Positions 26,563-39,367 of a stretch of 64,000 nucleotides of DNA are shown here, one piece after another. The notes under the pieces are model-generated. The model was given only the letters and a program-made list of their open reading frames with translations. It did no database searches and had not been told where the DNA came from. A program made the translations under genes and the position numbers. Position 1 is the first letter of the stretch. Every line of letters begins with the position of its first letter. This DNA is from an uncultured delta proteobacterium (GTDB lineage: Bacteria; Desulfobacterota; Binatia; Binatales; Binataceae): positions 613,801-677,800 of the forward strand of contig CAWDXY010000004.1 of the NCBI GenBank assembly GCA_963806485.1. The letters are read 5' to 3'.

Positions 26563-27430
26563 ATGAGTAGCGACCGTCCCAGAGCAAAATCGAGGCAAAG
26601 ACCGCCCGAAGATTCCCCGGGATTTTCCGGCCGCGCCGCTTACGCTCGAAGGCTACAGCATTCTGCATCAGATGTTCCGCGTGCGGCGTCGCGAATTGCG
26701 CGCGCTCGACCCCGCGAAACGCGACGCGGCTTTCAAGGAGGCGTCGAAGCTGTTCGGCGAGATGTCCGCGCGCGAAGACGGTGAGACCGCGCTGTTCTCC
26801 GCGCTCGGCCACAAGGGCGATCTGATGATCGTCCACTTCCGCCGCAGTTTCGAGGAACTCGGGCGCGCCGAACTCGCCGTCGCCGCGCTTGAACTCAGCG
26901 ACTACCTCGAACCGACCACGTCGTACCTGTCGGTAATCGAAATTGGCCTCTACGAGGCGACGGTCGCGCTCTATCGCCGGCTGGTCGAGAATGGTGTGGG
27001 ACCCCGCTCGCCGGAATGGAAGTCCGAGATCGAGTCCGAGATCGCGCGACAACGCGAAAAGATTCTGCCGCGGCTGTATCCGAAAATTCCCGCGCGACCT
27101 TACTTGTGCTTCTACCCGATGGACAAGAAGCGCGACGGCGCCGACAACTGGTATCGCCTGCCGATCGACGATCGCCAGCGCCTGATGCACGATCACGGAA
27201 TGGTCGGGCGGCGTTTCGCCGGCGAAGTGACGCAGATTATCTCGGGCTCGATCGGATTCGACGATTGGGAATGGGGCGTCGATCTATTCGCCGACGATCC
27301 ACTCGTGTTCAAGAAGCTCGTTTATGAGATGCGTTTCGACGAGGCCAGCGCGTCGTACGCGAAGTTCGGGCCATTTTACGTCGGCATCCGACTCGAGGCG
27401 GCCGAACTCGGCAAGATCTTCTCGACCTGA
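26563..27430 (+). CDS. chdC: Coproheme decarboxylase ChdC/HemQ (chlorite-dismutase fold); 5' end appears to need a +1 frameshift
   Basis: FYPMDK, RQRLMHDHG, GFDDWEWGV and RFDEASA. The family-like PLTLEGYSILHQMF lies upstream of ATG 26672 in the same frame with no start codon, and the nearest ATG (26563) is in another frame. Confidence 0.75.
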
Positions 27431-27474: not shown

Positions 27475-28566
27475 ATGATCACGCAGGGCGACGATTATCC
27501 GATTCATCAGACGCCGGAGCCGGTCCAGCAGGTGTTCACCAGCGACCGCAACTTTTACGATCGATTTTTTTTCAACGGATACTTTCGCGAGGGCGAGCCA
27601 TACTTCGCCGCCGCGATGGGAATCTATCCGAACGTCGGAATCCTCGACTGCGCGTTCAGCGTCGTCGCCGGCGGCGTGCAGCATTGCGTGCGCGCGTCGC
27701 GGGTGCTCGGGGCAGAGCGCATGGACACGCGCGCCGGCCCGATCTCGATCGAAATCGTACGGCCGCTGCGAAGCATGCGTCTTCGCGTCGATCACGAAGC
27801 CGTGAAAGCAGACCTGATGTTCGAGGCGCGCGCCGATGCGATTGAGGAGCCTCGCTTTTCGCGCCGCGCCGGTCCGCGCCTCGTCATGGATCTCACGCGG
27901 TTCACGCAGCACGGCGGCTACAGCGGCAGCCTGACGGTAGCCGGCAAGACTTACGAAGCGAAGCCGTCACGAGTGTGGGGTTCGCGAGATCGTTCGTGGG
28001 GCGTGCGCGGAATCGGGCCGCAGGATCCCGCGGGCGTGCCGTCCGCCGCGATGGGTCAGTTCTACTGGCTGTGGTCGCCGACGAATTTCGAGGACGTCTG
28101 CACGCATTGCGACGCCATGGAAACCGCCGACGGCTCGCGATGGCATCAGTTCGGCGCCGTCACGAGCGCGGAGCACGGCGCCCCGCTCGATCTCGCAACC
28201 GGAGTCGACTTCAACATCAACTATGCTTCCGGAACGCGCCACGCCAAGACCGCCGAGATCATTTTACGTTCGCCGCGCGCCGGCGAAAACCGCGTCGAGC
28301 TGAAAACGCTCTACAACTTCTACATGCAGGGCATCGGCTACTTTCATCCGAAGTGGGGCCACGGAATGTACGTCGGCCCCGACGCCTCAACGTACGAGTC
28401 GTTCAAAACCGCCGACGTCAACGAGCGCGACTTGATGCATCAGCACATCCAGGCCGTGTGCCAGGCGAAGATGGGCTCGCGCGAGGGGATGGGAATTCTC
28501 GAGATGGCGATCCTCGGGCCGCACCAGCGCAGCGGCTTCAAGGAATTCCTCGACATGCATCCGTAG
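27475..28566 (+). CDS. Conserved hypothetical beta-rich protein (lipocalin/AttH/tocopherol-cyclase-like)
   Basis: Clean GC3-rich ORF with DDYPIHQTP, FYDRFFFN and GSRDRSWGVR. The fold call is from memory. Confidence 0.6.
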   Translation: MITQGDDYPIHQTPEPVQQVFTSDRNFYDRFFFNGYFREGEPYFAAAMGIYPNVGILDCAFSVVAGGVQHCVRASRVLGAERMDTRAGPISIEIVRPLRSMRLRVDHEAVKADLMFEARADAIEEPRFSRRAGPRLVMDLTRFTQHGGYSGSLTVAGKTYEAKPSRVWGSRDRSWGVRGIGPQDPAGVPSAAMGQFYWLWSPTNFEDVCTHCDAMETADGSRWHQFGAVTSAEHGAPLDLATGVDFNINYASGTRHAKTAEIILRSPRAGENRVELKTLYNFYMQGIGYFHPKWGHGMYVGPDASTYESFKTADVNERDLMHQHIQAVCQAKMGSREGMGILEMAILGPHQRSGFKEFLDMHP

Positions 28567-28595
28567 CGGATCGGTCTGCGGTTGGGCGATGTCGC

Positions 28596-28898
28596 TCAGT
28601 TTCTGAGCTTGCCGAGCATGCGCTCGACGAATCCGGTCGGCTTCTTTATTTCGACCGGCTGAGGCTCGCGACCTTCTTTGAGCGCCGCGAAAATCTCTTC
28701 AACTTCGCCGTCAACCGGGAAGCGGCCGGTGCTCGACTTCGAGAAGACCAGCTTGCCGTTGACGATGACATCGAACTGCCCCGATTTGCCGGCGGTGATT
28801 TCCGCCTTCTCGCCGAAGGTGGAATCCAATGAGGCGGCCAGACTGGCCGCGCGTGGCTTATAGCCTCAAGCCGAGCAGTAGAGAATTTGTGTCGCCAT
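28596..28898 (-). CDS. SelW/SelT/SelH (Rdx) family selenoprotein, CxxU
   Basis: ATG 28898 reads MATQILYCSA-UGA(28866-28868)-GYKPRAASLA in frame with GKSGQFDVIVNGKLVFSK...RFP, the Rdx signature. Confidence 0.9.
28834..28850 (-). promoter_or_regulatory. Bacterial SECIS-like hairpin
   Basis: GCGGCCA-GUC-UGGCCGC stem-loop starting 15 nt after the in-frame UGA, with GU in the loop. Confidence 0.7.
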
Positions 28899-28934: not shown

Positions 28935-29501
28935 CTACTTGCCGTTCGTGGGGATATCGACGAACACCGCGGCCGCGACCACCGACGACCAGATGCCGTC
29001 GCGATCGCCGATGGCAGACTGCGTCACGTTGCGAGTCGTCACGATCTTGTCCGACATGCGCCACAGATCCTTGCGCTCGTCGTAGCTGAGATTCGGATCG
29101 AAATCGACGCCAAGAATTGTCGCCAGCATCATCGCGGCCAGGTCCTCGGCATAGTCGCCGGCCTTCTGGTCGGTCTCGCCCGTGCTGTGATGCTCGGACA
29201 GGTATCCGTACTGGGCCGGATTGCTGGGCAGCGCAACTCCCACCGACGACGCGATCAACCGATGCGGTTCGTTGGTCGCGTTGTCGCTCATCACGGCAAA
29301 AACGATCTGTCCCGGCGTCAGGTACTTCAAGCCTTCCTGCTGGCTGAGCAGTTTGCAGTTGGGCGGAAAAATCGATTTGACGCGCACGAGGTTGAACTCG
29401 GCGATTCCCGCGGAACGCAGCGCGAGCTCGAAAGAAGTCAGCTTCTCGCGATGGCGCCCCACGCCCTTGGTCAGAAATGTCCCTTTCGGGATCGGCCCCA
29501 T
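28935..29501 (-). CDS. pdaD: Pyruvoyl-dependent arginine decarboxylase family protein
   Basis: SFELALRSAGIAEFNLVRVKSIFPP, GYLSEHH and AAAVF. The cleavage site reads K-S rather than S-S. Confidence 0.8.
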   Translation of the reverse strand: MGPIPKGTFLTKGVGRHREKLTSFELALRSAGIAEFNLVRVKSIFPPNCKLLSQQEGLKYLTPGQIVFAVMSDNATNEPHRLIASSVGVALPSNPAQYGYLSEHHSTGETDQKAGDYAEDLAAMMLATILGVDFDPNLSYDERKDLWRMSDKIVTTRNVTQSAIGDRDGIWSSVVAAAVFVDIPTNGK

Positions 29502-29557
29502 TTATTTTCTCTCCTCTCCGATTCCGTTTTGTTTTATACGAATCCGCCGGCCCAACG

Positions 29558-31231
<1,674 letters not shown>

Positions 31232-35606: not shown

Positions 35607-36935
35607 TCAGATCACGTTCGCTTCAGGAGAAATTTCCTCGAGCTCACGGCCCGAGGTCTCCGGAAGGAACCACATGATCGCCGGCGCGACCATCCAGAAA
35701 ACCGTCAGGTAGCAAACCGCGCGCGCATGCGAGCCGGTAAAGTTGAACAGCACACCCTCGAGGAACAGCCCGAGTGCGCCGCCGGTGGTGCCTGCGACTG
35801 CGAGCGCGCTGCCTGCCGTCGAACGATATGAGGTCGGGAACAATTCCGCGCTGTACGCACCCAGGATCATGCCCGCCGCGATGTCGAAAAATGTTTCCAG
35901 TATCCACGCCGGGACGACTGACCACCCTGGCGCCGTGTACATCCAAATGGTCAGGATCGGCGACAGGAACAGGAATGCGGTGCCCATCACGCGCCGCCCG
36001 TAGCGATCGCTCAGCCGGCCCGCGACGATCGAGCCCATAATTCCGAGCGCACCGCCGAAAAAAACCAACGACGAGACGTTGCCCGGCGACCAATGATGCG
36101 CCTCCTGCAGAAACTTCGGAAACAGAAAGCCGGCAGCGTTGCCGCCCATCGAGCCAAGGAAGGCGATCGACAGCATCATGACGAGCCGTCCCGGATACGC
36201 GCGGTATAGCTGAGCGAGCGGCTCCCAGATCTTCACCGGCCGCAGCCCTTCGAGTTTCTCCTTCTCGAAGCGCGTGCTTTCAGGCAGCACGCGGCGCAGC
36301 GGAATTATGAGTACCAGCGGCACCAGCGCGATCGCGTACAGACCGCGCCATCCGTAAGGAATCGTATTGATAAATGCGAACACAATCGCGGCCAGGCCGT
36401 AGCCCACGTTCGACACCGCGCTGAGCAAGCCAATCGCCCAGCCGCGATGGGCGGCGTCGACTTCCTCCGCGACTATTACCATCGCGATCGCGGCTTCGGC
36501 GCCCGCGAACGCGCGCGCAATTATCTCGAACGCGACGAAAGTCCGCGCGTTTGGCGCGATCGCGATAAGGCCGGTGAAAATCGTGTAGCCGAAGACCGTG
36601 TAGAGCAGCAGGCGGCGGCGCCCGAACACGTCGGCAAAGGGCGTCATCAGCAGCGACAGCAAATAGCCGAGCCGGATCACCGAGAGGACGGCGCCCAGGT
36701 GCGATTCCGCGATCTTGAGGCCCGCCTGGATTTGCTTGAGCGCGAGACTCAGCAGCGCACGATCGTATTGATCGAAAAATCCGGCCGTCGACGCAATCCA
36801 GAAAACCCGGCGCTGCCTTTTGGTGAACGGCGGCGTCCTGCCCAGGAATCCAAGATGGACGCTCTTGCGGTCCGCGTCCTCGGCCGAGGCTTCAGGTACG
36901 GGCTTCAAGTCCAGCTTGGCGGCGGGATCGTTCAT
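35607..36935 (-). CDS. MFS transporter
   Basis: About 12 hydrophobic segments and MFS motif A (ADVFGRRR; SDRYGRR). Confidence 0.9.
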   Translation of the reverse strand: MNDPAAKLDLKPVPEASAEDADRKSVHLGFLGRTPPFTKRQRRVFWIASTAGFFDQYDRALLSLALKQIQAGLKIAESHLGAVLSVIRLGYLLSLLMTPFADVFGRRRLLLYTVFGYTIFTGLIAIAPNARTFVAFEIIARAFAGAEAAIAMVIVAEEVDAAHRGWAIGLLSAVSNVGYGLAAIVFAFINTIPYGWRGLYAIALVPLVLIIPLRRVLPESTRFEKEKLEGLRPVKIWEPLAQLYRAYPGRLVMMLSIAFLGSMGGNAAGFLFPKFLQEAHHWSPGNVSSLVFFGGALGIMGSIVAGRLSDRYGRRVMGTAFLFLSPILTIWMYTAPGWSVVPAWILETFFDIAAGMILGAYSAELFPTSYRSTAGSALAVAGTTGGALGLFLEGVLFNFTGSHARAVCYLTVFWMVAPAIMWFLPETSGRELEEISPEANVI

Positions 36936-36940
36936 CGGGA

Positions 36941-38146
36941 TTAATCGATCGCCAGCGGCAATGATTCGAGACCGCGCAGAAAGTACGATCCTTTGTAGAC
37001 TGGTTTCATCGCGGGATCCTTCAGCCGCAGCCGCGGGAACCGCGCCAGCATTGCCTCGAATGCGATCCTTGCCTCCATCCGCGCCAGCGGCGCGCCGATG
37101 CAGAAGTGGATTCCCTCGCCGAACGCCACGTGATCATTCGGATCGCGCGCGATGTCGAATTTTTCAGGATCCTTGAATTGCGCCGGGTCGCGATTCGCCG
37201 CAGCTACGATCATCAGCGCGAATGCGCCCGCGGGAATATCGGTGCCGCCGAGCTGCACGGGTTCCCTGGTGAACCGCACCGTCGATTGCACCGGACCGTC
37301 GTAACGCAGCATTTCTTCGATCGCGCGCGGCAGCATTGCCGGGTTGCGCTTGAGCGTTTCGAATTGATCGGGATTGCGCCCAAGCGCGAGCGTGCCGTTG
37401 CCGATCAGATTGGTCGTCGTCTCATTGCCCGCGACCAGCAGCAGCGTGACGAAGCTCAGCAGATCCGGCGCTGACATCACGTCGCCTTCGTCGTGCGCGG
37501 CGACCAGCGCGCTCACCAGGTCGGGCCCCGGATTGGCGCGGCGCTTTTCGATCTCGGCCGTGAAGTAGTCGCCCAATTCGTCGATCACGCGCATCCTCTC
37601 GGGCGTCTGCGGACTGCCGGGCGCGTTGTTGTCGCCGGCTATGATCGCGTCGGACCAATGCTTGAACCTGGCGTTGAGCTCTGGCGGCACGCCGAGCATC
37701 TCCGCGATCACGGTGACCGGGAGCACGTTGGCGAGGTCCGCCATCAGGTCGAACTCGCCTTTGGCTTCGACCTTGTCGAGCAGTTCTTTTGCGATCTCGC
37801 GGATGCGTGGCTCGAGATCGCGGATTCGCCGGGGCGTGAAATCGCGCGACACCAGCCGGCGCAAGCGCGAATGTTGCGGCGGATCGGAACCCAGCATGTT
37901 GCGCGAACCCTTAAAGCGGCCCTGGTAAACCTGCTCGGGCGGCGGCATCGGCTGGACGCTCGACAGATGCTCATGGTCGCGCAGACCCGCGGTTACATCG
38001 GCATAGCGCGCCACCAGCGCAAACGTCATCGGTCCGGCATTGACGAGAGGCGGCGGTCCCGCCAGCAGCGGGTCATAGTGCGGATACGGATTCGCGCGGA
38101 ATTCGGGATCCCAAATGTTGAAATACACTTCTGTCGCTTCGGCCAT
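36941..38146 (-). CDS. Cytochrome P450 (third in the tandem)
   Basis: I-helix LLVAGNETT, EEMLRYD, and heme motif FGEGIHFCIG. Confidence 0.95.
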   Translation of the reverse strand: MAEATEVYFNIWDPEFRANPYPHYDPLLAGPPPLVNAGPMTFALVARYADVTAGLRDHEHLSSVQPMPPPEQVYQGRFKGSRNMLGSDPPQHSRLRRLVSRDFTPRRIRDLEPRIREIAKELLDKVEAKGEFDLMADLANVLPVTVIAEMLGVPPELNARFKHWSDAIIAGDNNAPGSPQTPERMRVIDELGDYFTAEIEKRRANPGPDLVSALVAAHDEGDVMSAPDLLSFVTLLLVAGNETTTNLIGNGTLALGRNPDQFETLKRNPAMLPRAIEEMLRYDGPVQSTVRFTREPVQLGGTDIPAGAFALMIVAAANRDPAQFKDPEKFDIARDPNDHVAFGEGIHFCIGAPLARMEARIAFEAMLARFPRLRLKDPAMKPVYKGSYFLRGLESLPLAID

Positions 38147-38161
38147 GATCGATCCCCTCGC

Positions 38162-39367
38162 TCAATCAGTCGCCATCATGAGCGACGCCAATCCGCGGAG
38201 GAAGTACGAACCTTTATAGGTCACTGGCGCGGCGGGATCTTTCAACCGCAGGCGCGGGAAGCGCTCGAGCATCGCGCCGATCGCGATCGCTCCCTCCATC
38301 CGCGCCAGCGGCGCGCCGATACAGAAGTGGATGCCCTCGCCCAGCGCGACGTGGTCGCGAGGCGGGCGCGCGATATCGAAGCGATCGGGATCTTCGAACT
38401 GCGCCGGATCGCGATTCGCCGCGGCGAGGATTATGAAGCATCCCTGGTTGGCCGGCAGGTCGGTGCCGCCCAGGTTTATGTCTTCCTTGGTGAAGCGAAT
38501 CGTCGATTGCACCGGTCCGTCGTAGCGCAGGATTTCTTCGATCGCGCGCGGCATCAATTCCGGGCTTTGCCGGAGCAGATTCATCTGCGCGGGATTGCGG
38601 CCGAGCGCGAGCATCCCGTTGCCGATCAGATTGGTGGTGGTCTCGTTGCCGGCCAGCAGCAGAAGCAACACGAACGCCAGCAGCTCGTCGGCGTTCATTG
38701 CTTCGGCGTCGTCGTGCGCGGCGACGAGAGCGCTCACCAGGTCGGTGCCGGGATTCTTGCGGCGGCGCTCGATCTCCTCGGCGAAATAATTGCGCAGCGC
38801 ATTTTTCGCGGTATGAAATTCCTCGGGCAGCGGAGTGCCGGGCAAAGTGTTGTCGCCCGAGACCACCGTGTCGGACCAGTGCTTGAATTGCGGATAGTGG
38901 TCCGGCGGCACGCCGAGCATCTCCGCGATAACCATCACCGGCAGCGCGTTCGCGATCCCGTGCATTACTTCGAACTCGCCCTTGCCGTCGGCGGCGTCGA
39001 TAAGATCTTTCGCGATCTCGCGGATGCGCGGTTCCATGTCGCGGATTCGCCGCGGTGTGAAATCACGCGAGACCAGGCGGCGCAGCCGCGTATGGAGGGG
39101 AGGATCGGAAAACAGCATCGTGCGCGCACCGGCGAACGGTCCCTCGTCGTTGGGCTCGGAAGGATCGCGCGGCCGCACGCTCGAGAAATGAGCATGGTCG
39201 CGGAGCACGGCCGTCACGTCGGCATAGCGCGTGACCATCGCGGTCGGCCCGAACAGATCGAGAATTCGCGGCGGACCCGCCAGCAGCGGCTTGTAATGCG
39301 GATATGGATTGGCGCGAAACGCGGGATCCCAGGGGTTGAAATAGATGTTTTCCGCGGCCTGATTCAT
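38162..39367 (-). CDS. Cytochrome P450 (second in the tandem)
   Basis: LLLAGNETT, EEILRYD, LGEGIHFCIG. Confidence 0.95.
   Translation of the reverse strand: MNQAAENIYFNPWDPAFRANPYPHYKPLLAGPPRILDLFGPTAMVTRYADVTAVLRDHAHFSSVRPRDPSEPNDEGPFAGARTMLFSDPPLHTRLRRLVSRDFTPRRIRDMEPRIREIAKDLIDAADGKGEFEVMHGIANALPVMVIAEMLGVPPDHYPQFKHWSDTVVSGDNTLPGTPLPEEFHTAKNALRNYFAEEIERRRKNPGTDLVSALVAAHDDAEAMNADELLAFVLLLLLAGNETTTNLIGNGMLALGRNPAQMNLLRQSPELMPRAIEEILRYDGPVQSTIRFTKEDINLGGTDLPANQGCFIILAAANRDPAQFEDPDRFDIARPPRDHVALGEGIHFCIGAPLARMEGAIAIGAMLERFPRLRLKDPAAPVTYKGSYFLRGLASLMMATD

Follow-up and report, generated by a model that had tools for sequence, protein, structure and literature searches.

Descriptions of bacterial SelW-like selenoproteins go back to 2005 (PMC1088965). 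In the Sargasso Sea data set they outnumbered every other selenoprotein family, with few Cys homologues (PMC1088965; PMC1794560), and their function is unclear, a redox role being suggested by the CxxU motif (PMC1088965). The proteins reported by Zhang, Gladyshev and co-workers in 2005-2008 are small and single-domain with an N-terminal CxxU motif (PMC1088965, PMC1794560, PMC2398784); their genes carry an in-frame UGA and, behind it within the ORF, a hairpin with a G in the apical loop, have rare Cys homologues, and occur only in Sec-decoding genomes. The Binataceae gene reported here shares these features. Its product also shares with eukaryotic SelW and MIEN1 (C17orf37; PDB entries 2NPB and 2LJK) the motif C-x-x-(U/C)-G-(Y/F)-(K/E)-P together with a strand-helix-strand-strand-strand-helix topology, and its RNA shares with the bacterial SECIS (E. 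coli fdhF type; SECIS_3, RF01989) a stem-loop just past the UGA with a small apical loop containing G-U. Our search of the literature on Binatota and selenocysteine found no paper describing the selenoproteome of this Binataceae lineage.

Here, we report a SelW-like (Rdx family) gene on the minus strand of a 64,000-nucleotide window (the whole stretch of DNA that was analysed) from a soil Candidatus Binatus metagenome-assembled genome (MAG). Judging from its sequence and that of its relatives, it is very probably a genuine SelW-like selenoprotein gene with a bacterial SECIS and a UGA read as selenocysteine. The frame, the family, the predicted fold, the decoding machinery, the UGA/Cys alternation tied to selB, and RNA-level selection on the hairpin are established here for this gene.

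Reading frame and gene calls

The complete coding sequence occupies positions 28596..28898 of the minus strand (100 aa plus stop, with TGA read as U). The ATG at 28898-28896 opens a 100-codon frame whose terminal TGA lies at 28598-28596, and translation with TGA as U gives a product starting MATQILYCSAUGYKPRAASLAASL.... The in-frame TGA is codon 11 (28868-28866), preceded by MATQILYCSA, with GYKPRAASLAASLDSTFGEK... downstream of it. The CxxU redox motif (28866..28877, minus strand) is composed of Cys8 (28877-28875), Ser9, Ala10, and Sec11, the UGA itself. The initial annotation had proposed ATG 28898 as the real start, with MATQILYCSA-UGA-GYKPR containing the CxxU motif, and this was reproduced by our minus-strand translation; it is also true, as it had remarked, that the mechanical ORF list begins the gene at TTG 28829. 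This TTG (28827..28829, minus strand) is the Leu24 codon inside the selW-like gene, and the ORF called from it has 77 aa. On the plus strand, an ORF at 27975-28832 (285 aa) runs antisense to the selW-like gene. We took it as a GC-rich shadow frame rather than a gene; the stretch it spans is already occupied, on the two strands, by conserved genes with family support, and it overlaps the Rv3169-family gene (see below) in another frame.

Automatic gene callers routinely truncate such UGA-containing selenoprotein genes. Nearly all public homologues of this gene are stored as 57-, 77- or 81-aa calls without the CxxU motif. In one public protein (P0002, 103 aa) the Sec position is occupied by Gly, probably through a TGA=Gly translation table, and another (P0054, 141 aa) is a frameshifted call running on into the antisense of the downstream gene. 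Some homologues are already labelled "selT/selW/selH-like putative selenoprotein" by JGI. The description of this selenoprotein as "hidden" is therefore apt for gene callers and does not hold for knowledge, the family having been described since 2005 and curated as TIGR02174. The value is one of annotation: Binataceae genomes are systematically short of one selenoprotein, and the active site is missing from the stored fragments.

Protein family, predicted fold, and the C-terminal extension

Profile searches were made with Cys in place of Sec. The protein matched Pfam Rdx (PF10262) with 64.8 bits against a cut-off of 22.6 (8.4e-18; envelope residues 4-68) and NCBIfam CXXU_selWTH (TIGR02174) with 59.1 bits against a cut-off of 34.2. 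It missed the equivalog cut-off of SelTWH_Campy (NF041051; 88 bits) with a score of 78.6 bits; by these scores it is related to that equivalog group, yet not a member. The best sequence matches in the PDB were human MIEN1 (2LJK; 3e-8), mouse SelW (2NPB; 1e-5), and bacterial "selenoprotein W-related" structural-genomics proteins.

An AlphaFold2 model was built from 33 orthologues, with a mean pLDDT of 80 and of about 90 for residues 1-60. Its topology is strand-helix-strand-strand-strand-helix (E3-8, H14-28, E32-37, E42-46, E49-53, and H65-74), and the CxxU motif is placed in the model between strand 1, which ends at residue 8, and helix 1, which starts at residue 14. When this predicted model was used as the Foldseek query against the PDB, the top 23 matches were all Rdx-family structures, with thioredoxins far behind; the top matches (2LJK, 2P0G, 2FA8, 2OJL, 2OBK, 3DEX, 2OKA, and 2NPB) had a probability of 1.00 each. 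A thioredoxin-like Rdx fold is thus predicted for the SelW-like protein, with the domain spanning residues 4-68 (28695..28889, minus strand) by the Pfam envelope and the model. In the orthologue alignment, Cys8 and position 11 are invariant and GYKPRAASLAAS is almost invariant. The membership in the SelW/Rdx family that had been read from the CxxU motif stands, with PF10262 and TIGR02174 both above their curated cut-offs and the PDB sequence matches and Foldseek in agreement.

The C-terminal extension (residues 69-100; 28599..28694, minus strand) begins with a variable, Pro-rich linker, ends in the conserved motif GF(V/L)xR(M/I/V)LGKLRN, and has no Pfam coverage. The terminal motif is modelled as a short helix (residues 89-98) with low confidence, the pLDDT of the extension being 49-57. 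An extra basic tail had been pointed out earlier; such a tail does exist (residues ~75-100), and it is mildly basic. In the alignment, most Binatus orthologues and many of those from Binataceae have this tail, which about 10 short forms of 73-82 aa lack.

Selenocysteine decoding machinery of the host genome

The host MAG has 5.03 Mb in four contigs and is 97% complete. If the UGA is decoded, the machinery should be found elsewhere in the genome, as the initial annotation had expected, and all of it was found: a tRNA-Sec with 72.4 bits against a gathering score of 47 (called SeC with anticodon tca by ARAGORN), and selB (370.7 bits), selA (562.8 bits), and selD (384.3 bits), all above curated cut-offs. 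The selD and selB genes (L018 and L009) are adjacent (G000:C2:329159-332305). The selD gene itself carries one in-frame TGA (...CKAAG-U-AGKLGP...), i.e., it is a selenoprotein form. We looked for a comparable SECIS after the selD UGA; several alternative small hairpins can be drawn there, none clearly of the same type, and the comparison was dropped. Please note that another genome of the same genus (G004) carries selB twice, as full-length copies of 370 and 365 bits on separate contigs, where the second copy could be a duplication or bin contamination (5% estimated).

The hairpin downstream of the UGA

The candidate SECIS hairpin, GCGGCCA-GUC-UGGCCGC, lies at 28834..28850 on the minus strand, inside codons Ala17-Ala22, and has a perfect 7-bp stem with the loop GUC at 28843-28841. 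The stem starts 15 nt past the UGA, exactly in the position and with the sequence first noted for it, with a gap of 22 nt between the UGA and the start of the loop. Its loop presumably resembles the E. coli fdhF GGUC loop closed by A-U. In bacterial SECIS elements, as described for bSECISearch, the apical loop lies roughly 16-37 nt from the UGA. Here, the stem-loop is inside the ORF directly 3' of the UGA with its loop from 22 nt, and the loop, GUC or GUU, is a small apical one with the conserved guanosine described for such elements (PMC1088965).

The hairpin is present in the minimum-free-energy fold. The z-score of the 76-nt fold is -1.7, which is not exceptional for a single sequence, and in the whole GC-rich window a perfect 7-bp hairpin whose loop has an early G lies 16-37 nt from 14 of the 1622 TGA triplets (0.9%). 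Since chance in a single sequence is such a weak filter, the weight of the hairpin rests on the comparison with relatives. RNAfold also drew a second hairpin that includes the UGA itself (GGCUUG...UAAGCC); it was rejected as unconserved, with AAG to AAA and GGC to GGG changes breaking its pairing.

In a scan of the locus, the Rfam model SECIS_3 (RF01989) scored 14.2 bits against a gathering score of 63 (E = 3.9) and covered model positions 14-42 of 59 only, the only other match of the scan being a spurious snoRNA. A SECIS_3 search of the whole genome gave nothing reaching the threshold. The hairpin is outside the Rfam family SECIS_3. The apex, GGCCAGUCUGGCC, is identical to the SECIS_3 consensus apex letter for letter; the low score is due to the lower-stem flanking positions of the model, which are unmatched.

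Conservation of codon 11 and of the hairpin across Binataceae

Among 36 genomes of the same genus that were searched, 28 of the 30 matches have exactly one in-frame TGA and two have none. In the species-representative set, a stop is found at codon 11 in 57 of 57 loci, i.e., every recovered Binataceae locus plus two outgroup loci. Altogether, TGA occupies codon 11 in 58 distinct nucleotide versions, down to 55-59% protein identity, and the protein is strongly conserved on both sides of it, with residues 12-23 nearly invariant. The two exceptions are Cys forms with TGC at codon 11 (loci L049 and L050, in genomes G010 and G019). Their downstream sequences have diverged (GHKPKMQTLAAS and GHHSRMEALAAS) and form no hairpin, and no selB was found in either genome (92-94% complete). 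By comparison, selB was found in 24 of the 28 Sec-form genomes of the genus, the remaining four being MAGs of 81-89% completeness. The Sec/Cys alternation goes with whether or not a genome has the decoding trait. Within one genus there is, accordingly, a natural experiment in which Sec forms with a hairpin and selB stand beside Cys forms without a hairpin and without selB. In three other orthologues (L091, L076, and L077), the selW-like gene is frameshifted internally or close to its 3' end, through what could be long-read indel errors or real decay.

The stem is laid over the codons Ala17-Ala18-Ser19-Leu20-Ala21-Ala22, with the third base of codon 22 being the first base outside the stem. Third-position entropy is 1.58 and 0.82 for codons 15 and 16 just before the stem, 0, 0, 0, 0, and 0.42 for codons 17-21 inside it, and 1.87, 1.01, and 1.67 for codons 22-24 just after it. 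Because synonymous sites are frozen in the stem and free just outside, selection acts on the RNA and not on the peptide alone. Over 49 distinct sequences, 99.7% of the 343 pair cells are paired and the G and U of the loop are invariant. The stem substitutions are G-C to G-U (five sequences), C-G to U-G (three), A-U to G-U (two), and one C-A mismatch (L080), and some of them come at the price of a replaced amino acid (Ala to Val, Ser to Gly). No double compensatory substitution occurs within Binataceae, where the stem is almost invariant; a covariation test consequently has no bearing here, and the support for the hairpin comes from synonymous freezing, wobble-only change, and unrelated stems elsewhere.

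Such unrelated stems were found in more distant Sec homologues. A Blastocatellia homologue has the hairpin AAAGUCGCAA-GUC-UUGUGGCUUU, and a Pirellulaceae homologue has GGUAGCG-AGUUA-CGCUGCC, 24-25 nt from the UGA; the same GU loop sits in the unrelated stems of L106, L107, and L118. The last of these is in the host genome itself and encodes a ResA-like redoxin selenoprotein with a WAxxUGC motif (NF041054, 352.5 bits against a cut-off of 300). Its UGA/hairpin site lies on the same contig outside the window (G000:C4:1027992-1028021, minus strand; ...SWASW-U-GCRFDLP), and its hairpin, CCUGCCA-GUC-UGGCAGG, starts 14 nt after the UGA. The redoxin gene is like the SelW-like gene in its decoding system, its CCA-GUC-UGG apex, and a similar spacing, whereas it differs in protein family, which is unrelated (a 373-aa open frame with the UGC motif), and in the stem sequence. 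Searched genome-wide, the pattern TGA-N12-30-CCAGTCTGG gave nine matches against five for the reversed control, with an open frame across the TGA in only two of the nine. It seems that the CCA-GUC-UGG apex is recognised by the SelB of this lineage, and it may be usable to list the rest of the selenoproteome. Taken with its synonymous freezing, its absence from the Cys forms, and the other stems bearing the same GU loop, the hairpin behaves as the SECIS that the initial annotation had suspected from its loop.

Proposed decoding and alternative readings

In the reading that we favor, the ribosome would meet the UGA at codon 11, where SelB, with GTP and Sec-tRNA(Sec), would be tethered by the apical part of the GCGGCCA-GUC-UGGCCGC hairpin in the coding sequence 15 nt downstream. 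SelB would then deliver selenocysteine in place of termination, and translation would go on to the stop at 28598-28596. The Sec-tRNA(Sec) would be made by SelA, with selenophosphate supplied by SelD. The product is most likely a small thioredoxin-like, thiol-dependent oxidoreductase in which Cys8 and Sec11 would cycle between the selenol/thiol and the selenenylsulfide. We infer Sec insertion, SelB binding, and the redox chemistry and substrate from established bacterial Sec decoding and from knowledge of SelW/Rdx proteins.

It might be argued that the UGA is read through without Sec, either by near-cognate Trp or Cys insertion or by Cys on tRNA-Sec when selenium is scarce, so that the usual motif is CxxC or CxxW. 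The residue inserted is indistinguishable from the sequence alone, and the Cys orthologues show that the fold tolerates Cys. However, the Sec form goes together with selB and the Cys form with its absence, and the selected, SECIS-type hairpin is present only in UGA forms. Nor is there any orthologue with TGG (Trp) at codon 11; the check for Sec/Cys alternation that had been recommended from the outset gave 58 distinct UGA forms, two Cys forms, and no Trp form. In addition, TGA is an ordinary stop in this host, where it ends the selW-like gene and 4 of 10 neighboring Pfam-supported genes. We consider read-through of this kind very improbable. For the same reason, a genome-wide recoding of TGA was rejected, as TGA terminates the selW-like gene and several of its neighbors.

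A second possibility is that the true product is the 77-aa protein from an internal start (TTG 28829 or similar), with the stretch from ATG to UGA encoding a leader peptide of 10 codons and the hairpin acting as an element of regulation or stability. The mechanical ORF does begin at this TTG, and translation can be regulated by hairpins near starts. Nevertheless, the 77-aa form would have neither strand 1 nor the CxxU motif and little of helix 1 of an Rdx domain in which the Pfam match begins at residue 4. The TTG is not conserved as a start, codon 24 being TTG, CTC, TTA or ATC among orthologues; residues 12-23 are nearly invariant, and the Cys forms read the same frame straight through. Such a start is exceedingly improbable. 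Lastly, a nonsense pseudogene, in which the TGA disables an Rdx gene that once had Cys and no full-length product arises, would agree with the standard code interrupting the frame and with almost all public homologue gene calls being truncated, but it has next to no chance and is effectively refuted by the conservation data, since the same codon keeps TGA in 58 distinct orthologues across a bacterial family with strong protein conservation on both sides, the full Sec machinery is in the genome, and neither an invariant downstream hairpin nor 10 conserved N-terminal codons would be kept by a pseudogene. The SelW-like selenoprotein read through its UGA by SelB is the reading we retain in what follows.

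Gene neighborhood

The upstream neighbor, 36 nt away, is a gene for pyruvoyl-dependent arginine decarboxylase (PvlArgDC; 28935..29501, minus strand; PF01862 at 5.8e-57 and TIGR00286 above cut-off), with which the selW-like gene is probably co-transcribed. The two belong to a minus-strand run of carboxyltransferase, biotin carboxylase, BCCP, methylmalonyl-CoA mutase, PvlArgDC, and selW-like genes, and the next gene is convergent; this order agrees with the earlier description of the selW-like gene as the last of a PCC/mutase/decarboxylase run. About 50 of 55 Binataceae loci retain the order of mutase, PvlArgDC, and selW-like. This conserved order was seen by setting positions 28935-31231 of the window beside loci L051-L105. 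In five loci (L059, L067, L073, L091, and L093) an insertion of about 1.1-1.7 kb separates PvlArgDC from selW-like, and two (L083 and L086) lack PvlArgDC and have the mutase gene directly next to selW-like. The amino acid identity of PvlArgDC within the genus is 97-99%, above that of its neighbors.

Convergent downstream are genes for an Rv3169-family protein (27475-28566, plus strand; NF053593, 376 bits; no Pfam match) and for a HemQ-like, chlorite-dismutase-fold, hydrogen-peroxide-dependent heme synthase (26672-27430, plus strand; NF008913, 300 bits), and most Binatus genomes keep the two in synteny. The carboxylase genes are preceded on their strand by a tandem pair of cytochrome P450 genes, each encoding 401 aa, and by an MFS transporter gene (35607-39367, minus strand).

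One may speculate that the SelW-like protein is a dedicated partner of PvlArgDC and/or of the methylmalonyl-CoA mutase module rather than a stand-alone housekeeping redox protein, with the lineage-specific C-terminal helix on its flexible Pro-rich linker serving as a docking or membrane-anchoring arm. We regard this as unlikely. If it were true, this would be the first physiological client for a bacterial SelW-like protein.

Comparison with known systems

MIEN1 carries Cys rather than Sec, and its C terminus bears a prenylation motif. The Binataceae tail is unrelated in sequence, and sequence identity between SelW or MIEN1 and the Binataceae protein is only about 27-31%. Eukaryotic SelW also differs in having its SECIS in the 3'-UTR, whereas the Binataceae gene has the element inside the coding sequence right after the UGA. 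Compared with the fdhF and SECIS_3 types of bacterial SECIS, the Binataceae hairpin has a 3-nt loop (five if the A-U pair opens) and no bulged U. Since the protein family and the decoding mechanism are both well known, the Binataceae gene is a rediscovery of a known gene type, and the finding leaves the knowledge of selenocysteine decoding and of SelW function unchanged. Set against the bacterial SelW-like selenoproteins described before, the Binataceae protein has an extension of about 30 residues outside the Rdx domain, with a Pro-rich linker and a conserved GFVxRxLGKLRN helix, and its gene has a fixed place downstream of PvlArgDC. Only these two features, the conserved C-terminal helix on a Pro-rich linker and the conserved position after the arginine decarboxylase gene, are particular to this lineage.
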